A stretch of DNA of 64,000 bases, taken from contig JBJMLR010000001.1 in NCBI GenBank assembly GCA_045805205.1, positions 120,677-184,676 of the forward strand. Reading direction: 5' to 3'. The first letter of the stretch is position 1, and each line of letters begins with the position of its first letter. The translations under genes and the position numbers were made by a program. Below the pieces are notes generated by a model that saw only the letters and a program-made list of their open reading frames with translations, was not told the DNA's origin and ran no database searches. Positions 5,519 to 57,386 of the stretch are shown here, piece after piece. The DNA comes from Bacteroidia bacterium. Lineage in GTDB: Bacteria; Bacteroidota; Bacteroidia; 2-12-FULL-35-15.

Positions 5519-5540
5519 TTTTGTTTTCTTAGTTACTTAA

Positions 5541-5596
5541 TCACCCAGTCACCCAGTCACCCAGTCACCCAGTCACCCAGTCACCCAGTCACCCAG
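5541..5596. repeat. octanucleotide tandem repeat (TCACCCAG)x7
   Basis: 7 perfect head-to-tail copies counted directly; overlaps the last codons and stop of the 5581..6240 gene and lies 23 nt upstream of the M1 peptidase start codon. Confidence 0.95.
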
Positions 5597-6240
5597 TTGT
5601 AGATCCAAAGAAGCACCGGTTTCGACGAGGCTCTTAAGCAGGGATCAACCACTTTCATGAAAGCATTTGAAACAGCCGGACAGCCCCAGCCTTCAGGAAC
5701 ACCTTCCGGGTAGATCTCCGTATCCGAAACATCTTCCCAGGAATGTAAAACGATCTCCCGTTTTTTTGCATTGCTGTTGGTCGGTTCCAATCCATTTAAA
5801 ATATAGTTCACCTTAATTCCCCAGTTACTGTATCCTCTCTTGCCGATCATGAATTTTCCAAGCGAGCTGCAATGACTGTCAGGAACGTTGCTGAACACCG
5901 GCTTGTCTTTTGTATATGTGCTTGCCCAGGGATTTGCACCGCAGCCGTGCGCACACATGCCGGAAGCAAGAACACTGTCTTTTTTCAGATCATAAAGAAA
6001 GGCTCTTTTTTTACCCGAATGGATCGTCATGTCGATGAGAATACAAAACTCAGTATTATAGCCTTTCGTTTTACAAAAGGATCCTGCTTCTCTTGATTTT
6101 GTTTTCAGGCGGGTGGTCGTTTCATCAGTAGTAGTAAAACCTGAAATGCCTGTCAATAATAGCAAAAGAAAACCTCCTGCTTTCGCCCTTCGACTTCGCT
6201 CAGGGAAATACTCAAACAGGAGGTTTTTAATTAATTTCAT
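5581..6240 (-). CDS. murein L,D-transpeptidase catalytic-domain family protein (YkuD_2-like)
   Basis: 219 aa; CAHGCG ... FSNVPDSHCSSLG ... GLEPTNSNA ... IVLHSWEDV ... GWGCPAV pattern resembles PF13645; C-terminal NWVTG is encoded inside the octamer repeat. Confidence 0.5.
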   Translation of the reverse strand: MKLIKNLLFEYFPERSRRAKAGGFLLLLLTGISGFTTTDETTTRLKTKSREAGSFCKTKGYNTEFCILIDMTIHSGKKRAFLYDLKKDSVLASGMCAHGCGANPWASTYTKDKPVFSNVPDSHCSSLGKFMIGKRGYSNWGIKVNYILNGLEPTNSNAKKREIVLHSWEDVSDTEIYPEGVPEGWGCPAVSNAFMKVVDPCLRASSKPVLLWIYNWVTG

Positions 6241-35638: not shown

Positions 35639-35651
35639 GGATAGAAATTAC

Positions 35652-35740
35652 CGTCATTGCGAATGAGTTCCTTAACGAACGAAGCAATCTCTTTTCGGAA
35701 TGAGATTGCTTCTCCGCCATGCGGCGGATCGCGATGACGG
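35652..35740. repeat. nested-hairpin intergenic repeat element, copy 1 of 3
   Basis: cgtcattgcga ... gaagcaatctc-ttttcggaat-gagattgcttc-tccgcc-atg-cggcgg-atcgcgatgacgg; outer and inner perfect stems; ~80% identical to elements at 42184 and 51384. Confidence 0.7.
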
Positions 35741-35749
35741 TTGAAAAAA

Positions 35750-37878: not shown

Positions 37879-38967
37879 TCAATGACAATCGCCGGTATAG
37901 TTTCGCGCAGCTTCCACGCCCATCTGTGCCGCTTTGTTCCAGTCGTCACAAGCTCCTTTAGTATCTCTCAGCATTTCCTCTGCGATTCCGCGGTTCAGAT
38001 ATGCTTCACCGTAAGATGAATTGAGCTGGATCGCTTTACTGCAATCATCGATCGCACCCCGGTAGTCCTTCATTTTGTATTTCGCTACAGCGCGGTTATT
38101 GTATGCAAATGCATAATCTGATTTTAGCTGGATCGCTTTATTGAAATCATCGATCGCACCGCTGAAATCTGCATTGTCGATCTTTGCGCTTCCGCGGTTA
38201 TTGTAAGCAACATAGTAATCTTTCTTCTGGTTGATCGCTTCTGTGTAATCGCTGATAGCGCCTCTGAAATCGCCCTGTTTGCGTTTTGCGCTGGCAAGGT
38301 TATTATAAGCGAATGCCATTTCCGAGTTTGCCACGAGTGCTTTGTTGTAGTCTGAAATAGCGCCTTTTATATCATCGAGCTGGCGCTTCGCGCTTCCGCG
38401 GTCATTGTATGCATAGGCATAATCCGGTTTGATCGTGATGGCTTTTGTAAAATCATCGATCGCTCCTTTATAGTCTTTATTTTCAAATTTTACTCCGCCG
38501 CGGTAGTAATACGCTTGCGCATAATCAGGCTTTATCTCCGTGGTTTTGGTGTAGTCGGCAACTGCGTCATCCTTTTTACCCAATGCGTACTTGGCTTGTC
38601 CGCGGCTGAAATAGCTGTCCGCGGTTTCAGCCAATGTGAGCGCTTTATCGAAGTCAGCAATCGCACCATTATAGTCTTTCATCTCAAATTTCGTTGTTCC
38701 GCGGTTGTAGTAGGCGCGTTCAAAATCCGGTTTCAGGGAAATGGCCTGGTTAAAATCGTTCAGGGCTCCGCTGAAATTCCTGGCTGCGAAATCCGAAATT
38801 CCGGTGTTATAGAATTTTTCAGCATCCTGCGAACCGTCATCCAGGATCTTCGCTTTAACAATGGAATCTGTTTGTGCATAGCCAAAGGCCGTAAGTACAC
38901 AACATGCCCCCACCAATAATTTTTTGAGATTCATAGTTTTATCTTTAGAATATGATAAATATAACAA
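37879..38967 (-). CDS. tetratricopeptide repeat protein, secreted
   Basis: About 9 consecutive 34-aa TPRs (A..YNNRG.AK....Y.GAI.D..KAI...P). Confidence 0.8.
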   Translation of the reverse strand: MLYLSYSKDKTMNLKKLLVGACCVLTAFGYAQTDSIVKAKILDDGSQDAEKFYNTGISDFAARNFSGALNDFNQAISLKPDFERAYYNRGTTKFEMKDYNGAIADFDKALTLAETADSYFSRGQAKYALGKKDDAVADYTKTTEIKPDYAQAYYYRGGVKFENKDYKGAIDDFTKAITIKPDYAYAYNDRGSAKRQLDDIKGAISDYNKALVANSEMAFAYNNLASAKRKQGDFRGAISDYTEAINQKKDYYVAYNNRGSAKIDNADFSGAIDDFNKAIQLKSDYAFAYNNRAVAKYKMKDYRGAIDDCSKAIQLNSSYGEAYLNRGIAEEMLRDTKGACDDWNKAAQMGVEAARNYTGDCH

Positions 38968-42167: not shown

Positions 42168-42183
42168 GTAACTTGTTCAGGGT

Positions 42184-42260
42184 GTCATTGCGAGTAGGAA
42201 CGACGAAGCAATCTCTTCAATGAAGAGATCGCTTCTCCGCCGGGCGGATCGTGATGATGA
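42184..42260. repeat. nested-hairpin intergenic repeat element, copy 2 of 3
   Basis: gtcattgcgag ... gaagcaatctcttcaatgaagagatcgcttctccgccgggcggatcgtgatgatga; compensatory U-G pairs keep the outer stem. Confidence 0.7.
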
Positions 42261-42288
42261 TTAAATTCAAAATCTGTGGTTAAAAAAT

Positions 42289-45259: not shown

Positions 45260-46789
45260 ATGGCAATAATCGGTTCGGTGATAAAGCGTACGTTTGAGAT
45301 CAGGGAGAGCCTGCCAAAGATCCGGAAAAGAAATGGATATAAGCAGCAGACCAAAACGCTGAAAAAGCTTCTTTCCAAAGCGGAATTCACCGCTTTCGGG
45401 GAACATTATAATTTTTCGAAGATCCTTGGTGAGGAAGACCTGATCGCCGCTTTCCAGCAAACGGTGAAAACACATGATTATGTGTCAATGTACAAGAACT
45501 GGTGGTATCGTACCCGTGAAGGAGAAGCGAACATCTGCTGGCCGGGAAAGATCAAGTATTTTGCATTGAGCTCCGGAACTTCGGATGCTGCCAGCAAATA
45601 CATTCCGGTTACCAGCGACATGCTGAAAGTGATCCGTAAGGCAGTTCTCCGGCAAATGATCTCTTTCGTGCACGTCGGACTTCCGAAAGAACATTTTGAA
45701 AAGGAAGTGCTGATGGTCGGAGGAAGCACCGATCTCAAATACAATGGCATTTACTATGAAGGCGACCTCAGCGGGATCACGACGGGCTCGGTGCCTTTTT
45801 ATGTACAAGGTTACAGCAAACCCGGCTTACGGATCACCAGCGTAAGCGACTGGGAAGCCAAACTGCAGGAGATCACCAACAATGCCTCGAAATGGGATAT
45901 TGGGATCGTATGTGGCGTTCCGGCCTGGATCCAGATCCTTTTTGAAAAGATCATCCGCGAATACAAAGTGGCTAATATTCACGAGATCTGGCCGAACCTG
46001 AACGTCTACATTCACGGTGGTGTTTCTTTTGCGCCTTACAAAAAAGGATTTGATAAGCTTCTCGGCCGCCCGATTGTGTACATGGACACTTATCTTGCAT
46101 CGGAAGGCTATGTGGCTTTTCAAACGCGCCAGGAAACGGACGGGATGAAGATGATGCTTGATAACGGATTGTTTTATGAATTCGTTCCTTTTACACCGGA
46201 GAATTTCGACGATGAAGGAAACATGGGAGAGCATCCGCAAACACTGCATATTGACCAGGTGCGTGAAGGAGTCGAGTACGCATTGCTGATCACGACCTGC
46301 TCAGGCGCCTGGCGTTATCTTATCGGTGATGTGATCAAGTTTACTTCCGTTGAGCAGCATGAGATCATCATTGTCGGAAGGACGAAACATTTTCTCAGTC
46401 TCTGTGGTGAGCATTTATCACAGGACAATATGAACAAGGCGATCGAGCTGGTTTCAGAAGAGTTGAAAATTGATATCAAAGAATTCACCGTGGCCGGGAT
46501 CAGCTATGACACGATGTTTGCACACCACTGGTTCATCGGCACGGATGGAAAGGTGGATGCAAAGCTGCTTCGTACACGCCTGGATGAAACGTTGAAGGAG
46601 CTGAATGATGATTATAAAGTGGAAAGGATCTCAGCATTAAAGGACGTCATTGTAGATGTTTATCCGGTACAAGTATTTTACGACTATATGCGTACAAAAG
46701 GTAAGGTTGGATCGCAATTTAAGTTTCCCAGGGTTTTGAAGAAAAATCAGCTGATTGAGTGGGAATCTTATTTGAAAATGAAGCGATAG
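45260..46789 (+). CDS. GH3 family protein (acyl-acid amido synthetase superfamily, ANL-like)
   Basis: 509 aa; FALSSGTSDAASKYIPVT adenylation motif; YASSEG-like YLASEGY motif. Confidence 0.65.
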   Translation: MAIIGSVIKRTFEIRESLPKIRKRNGYKQQTKTLKKLLSKAEFTAFGEHYNFSKILGEEDLIAAFQQTVKTHDYVSMYKNWWYRTREGEANICWPGKIKYFALSSGTSDAASKYIPVTSDMLKVIRKAVLRQMISFVHVGLPKEHFEKEVLMVGGSTDLKYNGIYYEGDLSGITTGSVPFYVQGYSKPGLRITSVSDWEAKLQEITNNASKWDIGIVCGVPAWIQILFEKIIREYKVANIHEIWPNLNVYIHGGVSFAPYKKGFDKLLGRPIVYMDTYLASEGYVAFQTRQETDGMKMMLDNGLFYEFVPFTPENFDDEGNMGEHPQTLHIDQVREGVEYALLITTCSGAWRYLIGDVIKFTSVEQHEIIIVGRTKHFLSLCGEHLSQDNMNKAIELVSEELKIDIKEFTVAGISYDTMFAHHWFIGTDGKVDAKLLRTRLDETLKELNDDYKVERISALKDVIVDVYPVQVFYDYMRTKGKVGSQFKFPRVLKKNQLIEWESYLKMKR

Positions 46790-46791
46790 TT

Positions 46792-46855
46792 AGTTCAATA
46801 GTTTATTAGTTCATTAGTTCATTGGTTCATTAGTTCAATAGTTCATAAGTTCACT
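46792..46855. repeat. degenerate octanucleotide tandem repeat (AGTTCATT)x8
   Basis: agttcaat agtttatt agttcatt agttcatt ggttcatt agttcaat agttcata agttcact, starting 3 nt after the GH3 stop codon. Confidence 0.9.
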
Positions 46856-46976
46856 GGTGCAGGGCGCAGTTGGCAAGTGATTGCAGGGAAATTTCGAACC
46901 TTGCAGATGTGGAAGCAATTTCATGATGAGGGAGTAAGTGTTCGTAAATTCGTAAATATTCGTATTTAGTAGTTGT

Positions 46977-50040: not shown

Positions 50041-50650
50041 CATGTGCTCTGCGCTCTCCGCGCCTCTGCGAGACTCCTTTTTTCTGCGGCACTTTACGTA
50101 AACCTCCGTGCCCTCTGCGGTTAAAAACATACACCGCTCTGCGCTCTCTGCGCCTCTGCGAGACTCCTTTTTTCTGCGGTACTTTACGTAAACCTCCGTG
50201 CTCTCTGCGGTTAAAAATATTACACCGCTCTGCGCTCTCCGCGTCTCTGCGAGAATCATTTTCTCTGCACTCGACGTAAACCTCCGTACCCTCTGCAATT
50301 AAAAACATACACCGCTCTGCGCTCTCTGCGCCTTTGCGAGAATCCTTCTCCGCGGTACTTTACGTAAACCTTCGTACCCTCTGCAATTAAAAACAAACAC
50401 CGCTCTGCGCTCTCTGCGCCTCTGCGAGAATCCTTCTCCGCGGTACTCCGCGTAAACCTCCGTGCTCTCTGCGGTTAAAAATATTATACCGCTCTGCGCT
50501 CTCCGCGAGAATCCTTCTCCGCGGTACTCTGCGTAAACCTCCGTGCTCTCTGCGGTTAAAAATATTACACCGCTCTGCGCCCTCCGCGTCTCTGCGAGAA
50601 TCCTTCTCCGCGGTACTCTGCTTAAACCTCAGCGCCCTCTGCGGTTAGAA
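50041..50650. repeat. imperfect ~88-bp tandem repeat array, 7 copies
   Basis: Units start at 50041, 50132, 50223, 50310, 50398, 50488, 50568 (periods 80-91); each carries several CTCTGCG heptamers and a TTTACGTAAA palindrome (intact in 3 copies). Confidence 0.9.
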
Positions 50651-50653
50651 ACA

Positions 50654-51383: not shown

Positions 51384-51469
51384 CGTCATCGCGAGGAAGG
51401 TACGACCGAAGCGATCTCTTGATAAAAACAAGATTGCTTCTCCGCCGGCGGGCGGCTCGTCATGACGGG
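51384..51469. repeat. nested-hairpin intergenic repeat element, copy 3 of 3
   Basis: cgtcatcgcgagg ... gaagcgatctcttgataaaaacaagattgcttctccgccggcgggcggctcgtcatgacgg; same architecture as 35652 and 42184. Confidence 0.7.
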
Positions 51470-53841: not shown

Positions 53842-56800
53842 TTGAATAGATTTTGCTCCATATACACCCGCATTTGCCTTTGCATAACACTGGTTTCCGG
53901 CGTTATTCCGGCCTCTTTTTCACAGGAATTTAAGTTCAGCCACATCGGATCAGATCAAGGCTTGTCGATGGGTGTGGTTAACTGCGTTCTCCAGGATAGC
54001 CGCGGATTCATGTGGTTCGGGACACAGGACGGACTGAATAAATACGATGGGTACAACATCACTGTTTTTAAGAATAACCAGCTCGATTCCAATACGCTTT
54101 CGAATAATTTCATCAACTGCCTGTACGAGGATAAAAATGGCGAGCTTCTCGTCGGTACCAACGGCGGCGGTTTTGATTCGTATAACCTCAGCACCGGTAA
54201 ATTCAAGCATCACATCGGCTCGGGAGCCAACAAAAACAGCCTGAGCAACAACAATGTAAAATCACTGCTGGAGGACAGAGACGGAATGCTCTGGATCGGT
54301 ACGGATGATGGCCTGAACAGTTTTGATCCGAAAACCAGGCGGTATTCGCGCTACCTGAACGACAGTAAAATCGTCAATACCATTTCCAGCAACAATGCAT
54401 GGTGCCTTCACGAAGGAAGCGATGGAAAGCTCTGGATCGGAACGTACGGAGGAGGATTGAACTCATTCGATAAGAAAACAGGAAAGTTCGAACATTTTTA
54501 CCAGTTCAACGACCGGGGTGAATTGATGTTCGACAACATTAATCTCATCCGCTCCATTTATGAAGATGCGGACGGAATATTCTGGATCGGAACGTACGGA
54601 GAAGGTGTTCAGATCTTTGATCCGCATTCGGGCCAGTTCATCAGGAATCTCCGCAATAATCCGAATGATCCCAATTCCCTGAACAATAACCAGGTGATGA
54701 GCATCACCGAAGATATGAACGGGATGCTGTGGATGGCGACGTACGGAGATGGCTTGAATCTCTACAATAAAAAAACCGGTCGCTTCAGAAGCATCACCTA
54801 CGATGAAAAAAATCCATCCGGTATTTCCAGCAACCAAATCAAGTGTGTGTATCACGATAAGGTCGGATCGGTATGGATCGGCACCGAAGGCGGAGGTGTG
54901 AACGCGCATTTCCGTGCGTCCAATAAATTTAAATTCTATCGCAATTCCGGGGAAGCAAACGGCTTAAAAAGTAACATCGTTTATGCATTGCAGGAGGACA
55001 AGGACGGCTTGCTCTGGATCGGAACGGGGCATGGCGGGCTGACCACTTTCGACCGGGAGAATAATATTTTTCAGCATTATCCGCAATTGTCTACATCCGG
55101 TAATAATTCGATCCTTTCTCTGTGTGAGGACCGCGATGGGATCATCTGGGTAGGAACCTGGGGCGACGGTCTGAATTCATACGATAAGAAGACGAAGCGG
55201 GTGACGAATTACGAGCAGAAGCTGAAGCAGGCAAAGGAAGCAAACGATGCGGTATTCGATCCCGTGAGCGCTGCTACGATCGTTTCGATCATGGAAGATT
55301 CTGAAGGAAAGATCTGGGTAGGAACCTATGGTGCAGGCGTTTTCGTTTACAATAAAAAGACAGGAAAATTCACTAATTATGATGCATCCAAAGGTTTGAG
55401 CATCGATAACGTTTATAATGTTTATGAAGATGGTCAGAAGAATTACTGGATCGCAACGGATGGAGGAGGAGTTGTAAAATACAATGAATATGCTAATGTT
55501 TTCAGAATCTATGCGCGTGATGAAAAAGCGAACAGCATCAGTTCCAATTCGGTGAATTGCAGCTATGAAGATAAAGATGGAAACATGTGGTTCGGAACAT
55601 CAAATGGCCTGAACCGGCTGGATGTGAAGACAGGAAAATTCAGTGCGTACTTCGAAAAGGATGGATTGCCGAATGATTTTATATACTCGATCCTGCCCGA
55701 CAGCAAAGGAAATCTCTGGATGAGCACGAATAAAGGTGTCTCCAAATTTAATCCGAACATGACGAACGAGAACGGATCCGCGTTCAGAAATTATGATGTC
55801 AATGATGGTTTGCAGGGACTTGAATTTAACCAGGGTGCTTATTATCAAAGCAAAGGAGGAGAGATCTTCCTGGGAGGAGTGAACGGCTTCAATGCGTTCT
55901 TTCCCGATAAGATCCAGGATAATCCGAACATTCCGCCGGTGCACATCATTTCATATAAACGTTTCGGAACCGAAGTAATGCTCGATACACTGATCTACGA
56001 CAAAAAATACCTGGAGCTTTCCTATAAGCAGAACTTCTTCTCTTTCGATTTTGTTGCGCTGGACTACCAGATGCCGGGGAAGAATAAATATTCCTATAAG
56101 CTGGAAGGAGTGGACGATGACTGGTCGCCGCCGAGCACAACCCGTTACGCAAGCTATACCGAGCTGAGCGGAGGTGATTACATTCTTAGGGTCCGGGGAG
56201 CCAATAACGACGGGACCTGGAACAATGACGGCGTAACGCTGTACATCCGGATCAATCCGCCGTTCTGGAAAACGAAATGGTTCTATGCTCTGAGTGTTCT
56301 TACGATCATAGCAGGATTTGCGGGATTTGTGAGATACAGGACCAGCGCGATCAAACGGGAGAAGAAGATCCTTGAAGAGAAAGTGGAAGAGCGGACACAG
56401 GAGCTGGCGCAGAAGAACAAGGATATTACCAGCAGCATTCAATATGCGAAACGGATCCAGCTTGCGATCCTGCCGCCGCTGGAGCAGATCTACAAATATT
56501 TTCCGACTTCCTTTGTGCTGTACAAACCGAAGGACATTGTCAGCGGCGATTTCTATTGGTTCGGAGTGAAGGACGGCAAGCGCATCATTGCGGCTGTAGA
56601 TTGTACGGGTCATGGAGTTCCCGGGGCCTTCATGAGTATGATCGGACATAATTTATTGAACCAGATCATCGGGGAAAACGGGATCACGGAACCGGATGAA
56701 ATCCTGAATGCGCTGCACAGAGGCGTGCAGTCGGCATTGCGACAGGGAACAAATATAGTGGACACGAGCGATGGTATGGATGTGGCGATCTGCTGTATTG

Positions 56801-57177
56801 ATGAAAGCAATGCTGAATTGACCTATGCGGGAGCTTATCGTCCGTTGTTTATTGTCAGGAACGGGGTGCTGGACAAGATCGAAGCGGATAAGAATCCTAT
56901 CGGGGGCTCTCAGCTGGATGCGGACCGGAAATTTACAGCTCATAAGGTAGTGATCGGTAAAGGAGATACTATTTATATGGCTTCCGATGGGTATGCCGAT
57001 CAGTTTGGCGGCGACAAAGGCAAAAAATTCATGATAAAACGCTTCCATGAGCTCATTCTGTCTATGCAGCAGGAGCCGATGGAAGAGCAGTGCCGTATAC
57101 TGGATCGTACATTTGAGGAGTGGCGCGGGGTTTATCAGCAGGTGGACGATATCCTGGTGATCGGGATTCGTTTCTGA
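53842..57177 (+). CDS. periplasmic Reg_prop beta-propeller plus Y_Y_Y sensor, TM, PP2C/SpoIIE serine phosphatase
   Basis: 1111 aa; repeated D..G.(L/M)W(I/F)GT..G(L/V)N.(Y/F)D propeller blades; Y_Y_Y domain; single TM (ALSVLTIIAGFAGFV); PP2C motifs DIVSGDFYW, AAVDCTGHGVPGAFMS, DGYADQFGG; start is TTG per the ORF track and is uncertain. Confidence 0.75.
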   Translation: MNRFCSIYTRICLCITLVSGVIPASFSQEFKFSHIGSDQGLSMGVVNCVLQDSRGFMWFGTQDGLNKYDGYNITVFKNNQLDSNTLSNNFINCLYEDKNGELLVGTNGGGFDSYNLSTGKFKHHIGSGANKNSLSNNNVKSLLEDRDGMLWIGTDDGLNSFDPKTRRYSRYLNDSKIVNTISSNNAWCLHEGSDGKLWIGTYGGGLNSFDKKTGKFEHFYQFNDRGELMFDNINLIRSIYEDADGIFWIGTYGEGVQIFDPHSGQFIRNLRNNPNDPNSLNNNQVMSITEDMNGMLWMATYGDGLNLYNKKTGRFRSITYDEKNPSGISSNQIKCVYHDKVGSVWIGTEGGGVNAHFRASNKFKFYRNSGEANGLKSNIVYALQEDKDGLLWIGTGHGGLTTFDRENNIFQHYPQLSTSGNNSILSLCEDRDGIIWVGTWGDGLNSYDKKTKRVTNYEQKLKQAKEANDAVFDPVSAATIVSIMEDSEGKIWVGTYGAGVFVYNKKTGKFTNYDASKGLSIDNVYNVYEDGQKNYWIATDGGGVVKYNEYANVFRIYARDEKANSISSNSVNCSYEDKDGNMWFGTSNGLNRLDVKTGKFSAYFEKDGLPNDFIYSILPDSKGNLWMSTNKGVSKFNPNMTNENGSAFRNYDVNDGLQGLEFNQGAYYQSKGGEIFLGGVNGFNAFFPDKIQDNPNIPPVHIISYKRFGTEVMLDTLIYDKKYLELSYKQNFFSFDFVALDYQMPGKNKYSYKLEGVDDDWSPPSTTRYASYTELSGGDYILRVRGANNDGTWNNDGVTLYIRINPPFWKTKWFYALSVLTIIAGFAGFVRYRTSAIKREKKILEEKVEERTQELAQKNKDITSSIQYAKRIQLAILPPLEQIYKYFPTSFVLYKPKDIVSGDFYWFGVKDGKRIIAAVDCTGHGVPGAFMSMIGHNLLNQIIGENGITEPDEILNALHRGVQSALRQGTNIVDTSDGMDVAICCIDESNAELTYAGAYRPLFIVRNGVLDKIEADKNPIGGSQLDADRKFTAHKVVIGKGDTIYMASDGYADQFGGDKGKKFMIKRFHELILSMQQEPMEEQCRILDRTFEEWRGVYQQVDDILVIGIRF

Positions 57178-57386
57178 TCAGAATGATCGGCGAAAATGAC
57201 CTTCCACCAGGATGAGTCAGCCTGCCCAGAGTCCGCAGTAGCGGATCGAAGGGATATCCTGGTGATCGGGATCCGTTTCTGATCAGAATGATCGGCGAAA
57301 ATGATCTTACACCAGGATGAGTCAGCCTGCCCAGAGTCCGCAGCAGCGGATCGAAGGGATATCCTGGTGATCGGGATCCGTTTCTG
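57148..57386. repeat. 105-bp tandem duplication (about 2.3 copies) spanning the last 30 nt of the PP2C gene
   Basis: gatatcctggtgatcggga(t/c)(t/c)cgtttctga recurs at 57148, 57253 and 57358; each full unit has the 12-bp palindrome TTCTGATCAGAA. Confidence 0.9.

Follow-up and report, generated by a model that had tools for sequence, protein, structure and literature searches.

Three intergenic elements and their gene context

The stretch of DNA analysed here, referred to as the window, comprises 64,000 nucleotides (nt) of contig JBJMLR010000001.1 from a Bacteroidia bacterium and contains three dispersed, quasi-palindromic elements in the spacers between protein-coding genes. A first-pass annotation made from the sequence alone had drawn attention to them; both their places and their gene surroundings were borne out, with positions refined to 35652-35739 (copy 1), 42183-42259 (copy 2) and 51384-51467 (copy 3). 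Scans of public collections revealed a smaller unit, two copies of which are paired in each element, inverted and tail to tail, with the heads pointing outward. With a probability of about 0.6 we take these pairs, called doublets in the following, to belong to a class of repetitive extragenic palindromic (REP) hairpin repeats that is headed by CGTC and linked to the Ssn nucleases.

The two genes that enclose copy 1 (Methyltransf_30 and OmpA/PD40) are on the minus strand, those that enclose copy 2 (DUF885 and M42 peptidase) on the plus strand. Copy 3 directly follows the stop of a methyltransferase gene and ends 13 nt upstream of the start codon of a ZIP gene. All three spacers thus separate co-directional genes, and the flanking genes are ordinary and functionally unrelated.

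In each doublet the left unit lies on the plus and the right unit on the minus strand, such that no strand is assigned to the doublet as a whole. The left unit of copy 1 (35652-35691) consists of the head CGTC, box A GTCATTGCGA (35653-35662), an insert of 18 nt with a weak GTTC/GAAC hairpin, box B GAAGCAATC (35681-35689) and the tail TC, while its right unit (35702-35739) has the head CGTC, box A GTCATCGCGA, the insert hairpin TCCGCC-GCAT-GGCGGA, box B GAAGCAATC and the tail TC. The left unit of copy 2 (42183-42215) differs in having the head TGTC; its box A is GTCATTGCGA, its box B GAAGCAATC and its tail TC, and the insert GTAGGAACGAC is a variant of GGAGGAACGAC, of which a census of the units yielded eight occurrences. 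The right unit of copy 2 (42225-42259) is degenerate, its head included, with box A ATCATCACGA, the hairpin TCCGCC-CGG-GGCGGA and box B GAAGCGATC. In copy 3 the left unit (51384-51418) carries the head CGTC, box A GTCATCGCGA, the insert GGAAGGTACGACC and box B GAAGCGATC; the right unit (51431-51467) is again degenerate, although it retains the CGTC head, and contains box A GTCATGACGA, a GC-rich hairpin (CCGCC-CGCC-GGCGG) and box B GAAGCAATC. Inserts in the window measure 11-18 nt. The three copies align along their whole length, and the TCCGCC..GGCGG module, already recognized in the first-pass annotation, occupies the right arm in every one of them. Across the region with the three copies GC skew is mostly positive, three copies being too few to relate their shared orientation to the direction of replication.

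A covariance model was trained on 81 members of the family and run on the window with filters switched off. It recovered exactly the three copies, with 62.6, 54.9 and 61.6 bits for copies 1, 2 and 3, respectively, and E-values of about 1e-11 to 1e-13. There was no fourth copy in the 64 kb (the next match reached 12.7 bits, E 0.5), nor did searches of the window with core motifs detect anything further. Every element was scored by the model on both strands (47-63 bits). Folded as RNA, the whole elements are far more stable than dinucleotide shuffles, with z-scores of -7.8, -4.3 and -3.5 for copies 1 to 3 on the plus strand; the minus strand gives comparable figures.

The conserved structure is a hairpin within each unit

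The unit starts with the head (C/T)GTC, followed by box A (ATTGCGA), a variable insert, box B (GAAGCAAT), a C and usually a T or C. It forms a hairpin by itself: ATTGC pairs with GCAAT, a GA/GAA internal loop leads from this stem into a variable upper hairpin, and the stem is succeeded by a conserved C. This C after GCAAT is invariant across the 81 aligned doublets. Among 382 units, GTCAT is preceded by T in 181 and by C in 164, and GAAGCAATC is followed by T in 76% and by C in 21% of the units, the base thereafter being C in 48%. The base stem ATTGC/GCAAT closes in the minimum-energy fold of 253 out of 289 distinct units. At least four end-anchored pairs are formed by 73 of 204 distinct inserts (shuffles: mean 3.3, maximum 9), and these 73 inserts comprise 25 different stem sequences. 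The shortest family members carry the insert GCGAAGC (16 occurrences) and come near the size described for CGTC-tagged REPs. The TCCGCC..GGCGGA hairpin is one insert type among others and can reside in either arm or in both (loci L129, L156 and L185).

The first-pass annotation had interpreted the elements as nested, covarying hairpins. The long-range outer and inner stems connecting the two arms are indeed 97% paired across the 81 doublets, but their sequence is almost invariant and this pairing therefore says little about structure. Covariation was confined to the unit. The only common variant has T or C at position 6 of box A and A or G at position 6 of box B, and within units the two positions occur as T/A (314), C/G (11), T/G (5) and C/A (6), with a Fisher p of 4e-13. 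Between the two arms of a doublet, on the other hand, the box A variant was discordant in nine cases and concordant in a single one. Since position 6 covaries within units but not between arms, the structure that is kept by selection is one hairpin per unit and not a nested cruciform.

Within the window, the compensated C/G form is found in the left unit of copy 3, the base stem of which reads ATCGC/GCGAT, and in the right unit of copy 2, where C in box A is matched by G in box B. The U-G wobble pairs through which the outer stem of copy 2 was originally thought to be maintained are largely this very C-G pair inside the right-hand unit. Furthermore, the same strand that offers T.G in the outer stem has A.C in the inner stem, so that neither strand is consistently favoured and the argument from wobble pairs carries little weight. 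Contrary to the first-pass annotation, the outer arms of copy 1 fall short of perfect inverted repeats by one T.G position (TCGCGATGACG versus the exact complement TCGCAATGACG).

The elements are missing from close relatives

Four syntenic relatives were compared, in which gene order is the same and the DUF885 protein is 78-85% identical; three of them reach site 3. None contains an element at any of the sites covered, nor is there a single unit in about 86 kb. As the elements are missing from the orthologous spacers of the relatives, their gain or loss was a recent event. Sites 2 and 3 are simply empty or different. Site 1, in contrast, is filled with ordinary hairpins flanked by A- and T-runs in L194 and L195 and with a GC hairpin followed by a T-rich run in L192.

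The spacers orthologous to window positions 35639-35749 are L193 5345-5397, L194 6524-6592 and L195 6602-6658, and they hold hairpins of differing sequence; those of L194 and L195, with an A-run on one side and a T-run on the other, resemble two-way terminators. A further observation concerns the spacer of L192 that is orthologous to window positions 42168-42288. At L192 11856-11869, 4 nt past the DUF885 stop, it carries only a free-standing TCCGCCTGTGGCGG hairpin, a module that also makes up the right arm of copy 2 in the window. Similar free-standing hairpins lacking the boxes were noted in L136, L159, L182, L195 and L013.

One alternative explanation is that the elements act mainly at the RNA level. 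Transcribed between co-directional genes, a stable hairpin could terminate transcription or shield the upstream mRNA from 3' exonucleases, as has been proposed for the REPs of E. coli. Apart from the replaced hairpins in L192, L194 and L195, the location of all three copies in short spacers between co-directional genes would fit such a role, and so would the very stable folds of the whole elements (-33 to -51 kcal/mol) and the fact that 74 of 82 classifiable elements from genome loci lie outside open reading frames (ORFs). However, the hairpin is not followed by a U-run on the transcribed strand, nor does a terminator scan call anything at the elements. The A-run present 3' of the elements on the plus strand comes to lie before the hairpin on minus-strand transcripts. 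Single units have no orientation preference relative to genes, the box sequences are kept across phyla, which argues for recognition of sequence and not just of a stem, and with sites 2 and 3 empty or different in the relatives a conserved regulatory need is not apparent. We consider it rather unlikely that this is their main mode of action, but an effect on RNA could still be a real side effect.

Even less can be said in favour of cis-regulatory RNAs or of dispersed small-RNA genes, the latter of which had also been put forward in the first-pass annotation. The predicted structure is stable and copy 3 is only 13 nt away from a start codon. Yet neither promoter nor terminator signals were detected at the elements, the covariance model recognizes both strands, the orthologous spacers of the relatives are devoid of the elements, no functional theme unites the flanking genes, there is no rule of orientation, and the enzyme family linked to the repeats (see below) acts on single-stranded DNA (ssDNA) and not on RNA. 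The recommended comparison with Rfam was carried out. It yielded no match in the window at the gathering threshold, with only chance-level matches in E-value mode, and none in 127 kb of ten loci with other variants of the element. Among the explanations weighed here, this one is the least probable.

Distribution and arrangement of the family

The unit motif was matched in at least 120 viral-contig stretches, and doublets of the subtype with a TCCGCC arm were encountered in 69 stretches of species-representative genomes. These belong mostly to Bacteroidota; the other hosts are Patescibacteria, Planctomycetota, Ignavibacteria, Caldithrix, Omnitrophica, Anaerolinea and Proteobacteria. In several cases a single genome accounts for three to seven matches. 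A query of the ATTGC type against plasmids matched Novosphingobium, Methylosinus, Methylocystis, Methylobacterium, Halomonas, cyanobacteria and Legionella, and the same boxes combined with a CCAG tail reside on plasmids of Novosphingobium, Methylosinus, Methylocystis, Methylobacterium and the cyanobacteria Aulosira and Calothrix. The same query did not match pSymB, a replicon reported to carry CGTC-3 repeats (PMC3733652). Cultured-phage records contain almost no copies: the four weak matches all stem from metagenome-derived records.

In genome loci the units were arranged as 81 pairs with heads outside, 19 tandem pairs and 16 pairs with heads inside, counts that are biased toward doublets because the loci had been picked with a doublet pattern. 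In viral contigs 111 of 183 units were unpaired, a figure that includes chance matches to the motif. The ORFs between nearby elements are ordinary genes. When the ORFs neighbouring the repeats were inspected at 116 repeat-bearing loci, the only recurrent families were phage structural proteins, that is portal, capsid, terminase and adaptor proteins from one group of related viral contigs. In viral contigs L006, L038, L042, L052, L060, L064, L107 and L116 these portal, capsid, terminase and adaptor genes have single units between them, and some of the viral-contig units are placed a few nucleotides ahead of a ribosome-binding site.

[quoted passage not shown] This reading, likewise raised in the first-pass annotation, finds little to sustain it upon closer inspection. 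No direct repeat flanks the elements, and 279 flanks contain no target motif but merely a shortage of G upstream of the head. The supposed ends are complete hairpin units that also occur singly, as evident from the unpaired units of the viral contigs, and the version of the doublet with a coding region, described in the next section, carries a GIY-YIG gene of about 90 amino acids (aa) instead of a transposase. We regard derivation from a DDE-type insertion sequence as highly improbable.

The reading as elements similar to REPs and bacterial interspersed mosaic elements (BIMEs), by contrast, has held up: the elements are dispersed, intergenic, quasi-palindromic, missing in the spacers of relatives and members of a very large family.

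Units of the family flank genes for small GIY-YIG proteins

At two loci, L129 (an unclassified metagenome-assembled genome) and L173 (Chitinophagaceae, Bacteroidota), a small ORF is located inside the loop of a doublet, which itself forms part of a densely packed array of units. The layout of these cassettes is left unit, short spacer, ORF, short spacer and inverted right unit. The encoded proteins of 95 (L129) and 91 aa (L173) consist of a single GIY-YIG domain (PF01541) and share 58-60% identity. The surrounding arrays (L129 1-1500 and L173 2650-3760) are reminiscent of BIMEs in their density and comprise several insert types.

A metagenome scan with both proteins retrieved 80 loci with 81 gene copies. 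Units of the ATTGC type lie within 300 nt of 25 of these 81 homologues, in 16 cases on both sides. When a looser rule was applied (an HGTC head and a stem of five bases, the first of them A, followed by the reverse complement of the stem and a C), a CGTC-headed hairpin was present within the same distance of 64 homologues and on both sides of 35, set against a background of six chance matches in the roughly 86 kb of unit-free relatives. In 41 of 53 cases the closest unit downstream is inverted and has its tail beside the stop codon (median distance 34 nt), and 15 of the homologous genes are wholly enclosed between inward-facing tails. Close to the homologues, the base stems are ATTGC (23), ATTCC (15), ATCCC (14) and ATCCT (8).

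An enzyme of the same format has been characterized in Neisseria. SsnA, a single-domain GIY-YIG protein of 94 aa from the Ssn family (cd10448), binds and cuts NTS, an extended form of the dRS3 repeat (CGTCATTCCCGCGMAVGCGGGAATCYRG) (Chenal et al., 2025; PMC11893778). It acts on ssDNA only and not on RNA, recognizes the repeat in one orientation only and cuts a few nucleotides upstream of it (PMC11893778). Bacterial ssn genes are flanked by Ssn-related motifs (SRM), 71% of them by at least one and 42% on both sides, a repeat-gene-repeat layout that resembles an insertion sequence, and in the meningococcus the system lowers transformation by repeat-carrying DNA (PMC11893778). Of the genomes with more than 200 SRM, 81% were reported to encode an SsnA homologue (PMC11893778). 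Two 2.17-Mb chromosomes of N. gonorrhoeae filed as plasmids in PLSDB (NZ_CP119140.1 and NZ_CP119142.1) gave access to the gonococcal locus. The gonococcal chromosome encodes a single homologue of the L129 protein, an ORF of 94 aa with 45% identity to the latter over 86 ungapped residues, and NTS copies are present on both sides in the form of CGTCATTCCCGC..GCGGGAATCC repeats. Judging from its length and its NTS flanks, this ORF is probably the SsnA orthologue. If so, the GIY-YIG proteins inside the ATTGC-type doublets would belong to the Ssn family. For these proteins PADLOC defence models gave no match, and PHROG and NCBIfam no informative one; the sole match among solved structures is the UPF0213 protein BH0048 (PDB 1ZG2).

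Related arrangements were noted on two plasmids. In the cultured Bacteroidota strain Spirosoma oryzicola an annotated gene for a GIY-YIG nuclease is preceded, at a distance of about 70 nt, by a doublet of a sister type with the base stem ATCCC/GGGAT and the insert GAGGAACGA (L278 440-525, plasmid NZ_CP089542.1). On pNL2 of N. aromaticivorans (L277) an annotated GIY-YIG gene lies between inverted CGTC-GCCCCGTG-CTTGA-CACGGGGC hairpins at 520-555 and 910-945, whose stem of 8 pairs and loop of 5 nt fit the sizes reported for the CGTC-2 family of this strain; pNL2 also carries ATTGC-type doublets elsewhere.

The nature of the gene inside the doublets bears on yet another explanation, namely that the elements are REPINs mobilized by a RAYT, a tyrosine transposase of the IS200/IS605 superfamily. 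As in REPINs, a hairpin repeat is arranged here as an inverted doublet, and the presence or absence between relatives also speaks for this explanation. However, the REPIN head is GTAG and not CGTC or TGTC, neither a Y1 nor any recurrent transposase occurs among the ORFs beside or between elements at the 116 loci, no RAYT flanked by CGTC repeats has been reported (PMC3733652), and the gene inside the doublets encodes a GIY-YIG nuclease. Mobilization by a RAYT appears very unlikely.

Other repeats in the window

Several further repeats were recorded in the window. A tandem array at 50046-50653 consists of about 6.9 copies of an 88-nt unit (GCTCTGCGCTCTCTGCGCCTCTGCGAGAATCC...CTCTGCGGTTAAAAACA) with 85% matches and fills the spacer between an AhpC-like gene and the ZIP gene, a spacer that is only 52 nt long in L192. 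In viral contig L041 a unit is followed by a CTCTGCG-rich stretch similar to this array. Two tracts of 8-nt tandem repeats, TTAGTTCA-like and AGTCACCC, lie at 46782-46861 and 5523-5602, respectively, and a 9-nt periodic repeat at 223-483. In addition, there are five 102-nt repeats at 37989-38504, a 105-nt direct repeat at 57148-57357 and matches of 44 nt every 132-168 nt at 54234-55470, inside an ORF of 1111 aa (53842-57177).

Proposed mechanism and significance

We propose that the doublets in the window are gene-less derivatives of a unit-ssn-unit cassette. They would be recognized in trans by an Ssn nuclease encoded elsewhere in the genome, and recognition could take place whenever the DNA becomes single-stranded, i.e. 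during replication, transformation or conjugation. As the heads point outward, each strand presents one unit in forward orientation and cuts are predicted just outside both ends of the doublet. Effects on neighbouring genes, be it through an RNA hairpin, termination or mRNA stability, would be secondary; such an effect on transcripts is possible in view of the co-directional spacers and of site 1, where the element takes the place of a terminator-like hairpin.

Several observations weigh against an assignment of the window elements to the Ssn-linked class. The 64-kb window does not contain an ssn homologue detectable by tblastn. An ssn gene adjoins the repeat in just two of 195 loci retrieved through the repeat, and most copies are therefore far from any nuclease gene. 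The Neisseria repeat beside the ssnA stop is oriented opposite to those of the ATTGC-type cassettes. The published SRM pattern, HGTCWYN(0-2)YYVSBRHN(0-5)WNVSBRGN(0-2)RNCYNB, fits an NTS control but not the units, and neither strand of the window contains a match to it. Transposition is at most conjectural here, given that the elements lack a target-site duplication or direct repeat and a conserved target motif. Three of the six units in the window are degenerate, and isolated window units are predicted to fold only weakly as ssDNA (z of about 0 to -1.3). The thermodynamically favoured fold is the long-range one of the whole doublet, and hence thermodynamics and covariation, which singles out the hairpin of the unit, point in opposite directions.

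A more far-reaching version of the proposal holds that ATTGC-type doublets are the non-autonomous offspring of a mobile unit-ssn-unit cassette and that Ssn is the long-missing enzyme by which CGTC-headed REPs are spread or maintained via ssDNA intermediates. We put this forward tentatively and would not be surprised to see it fail. If true, the action of Ssn would span Bacteroidota, bacteria of the candidate phyla radiation, Proteobacteria and their phages, and the copies between phage structural genes would reflect either phage-borne spread or a conflict between the nuclease and phage DNA.

A survey of 2013 came to the conclusion that no dedicated enzyme belongs to the CGTC-headed repeats. 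The work of 2025 tied the NTS-like subtype to a single-strand-specific nuclease. The elements studied here extend this link in four respects. They constitute a subtype, missed by the published pattern, whose stem is different and whose inserted hairpin is modular, they add Bacteroidota, candidate-phyla-radiation bacteria and viral contigs to the host range, they provide gene-less doublets that appear or disappear between close relatives, and they show which stem is under selection. No new field is opened thereby. The results should nevertheless be useful for cataloguing pairs of Ssn and repeat as tools for work with ssDNA and for annotating intergenic repeats, along with the spurious ORFs they may yield, in metagenome-assembled genomes.

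Comparison with known systems

Elements of this kind had been presumed to be poorly catalogued in the phylum. Rfam has no entry for the family. It does match a described class, the CGTC-tagged REPs (PMC3733652) and SRM (PMC11893778), a match of the kind that the first-pass annotation had itself named as refuting its finding. The box sequences as such gave only coincidental hits to primers in the full-text literature, and the RepRanger paper does not contain the sequence of the element.

CGTC-tagged REPs have a CGTC or TGTC (also CCTC) head, a stem of 8-9 pairs starting with A-T and T-A, a loop of 4-5 nt and a short tail that is mostly CCA; they occur mostly as inverted dimers in intergenic regions between co-directional or convergent genes of five phyla including Bacteroidetes/Chlorobi, have 'no dedicated transposase' and do not flank a RAYT (Di Nocera, De Gregorio and Rocco, 2013; PMC3733652). 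The same authors equated their CGTC-1 family with the dRS3 repeat of Neisseria. The elements studied here share the CGTC/TGTC head, the first pairs A-T and T-A, the predominance of inverted dimers, often heterodimers, the intergenic location, the occurrence in several phyla and the lack of a transposase flanked by the repeats. The short unpaired tail agrees in part: copies from Novosphingobium with the same boxes possess the CCA tail (as CCAG), whereas the tails in the window read CTC. By their description the four families differ in having continuous stems of 8-9 pairs and loops of 4-5 nt; the ATTGC type may or may not be one of them. The hairpins flanking the ssn gene on pNL2 of N. aromaticivorans have yet another stem, CGTC-GCCCCGTG.

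The E. coli REP/BIME and REPIN/RAYT systems resemble the family in their inverted doublets, in clusters of units such as those of L129 and L173, in the presence of one enzyme gene flanked by repeats and, on the reading proposed here, in the recognition as ssDNA. They are set apart by the GTAG head and by an enzyme with the HUH Y1 transposase fold rather than GIY-YIG.

Besides the CGTC-tagged REPs, the closest parallels are found with SRM and the NTS/dRS3 repeat. Both there and here an oriented hairpin with the head CGTCAT, a stem starting with A-T and T-A and a conserved C after the stem is present in multiple intergenic copies, and outside the window the repeats of the family likewise flank a gene for a single-domain GIY-YIG protein of about 94 aa. 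The stems, on the other hand, are different, with five ATTGC/GCAAT pairs, a GA/GAA internal loop and a variable hairpin in the family described here and an 8-pair ATTCCCGC stem with a loop of 3-4 nt in NTS. The hosts differ as well, since neither Bacteroidota nor candidate-phyla-radiation bacteria nor viral contigs are discussed in the main text of the SsnA study (PMC11893778). The published SRM pattern matches only two of the 81 ssn loci as opposed to 64 with the looser rule for head, stem and tail, and the ATTGC type is a variant that this pattern misses. The element is probably a variant of the CGTC-headed REP class, now tied to Ssn as SRM, and as such part of a system that is known in outline.

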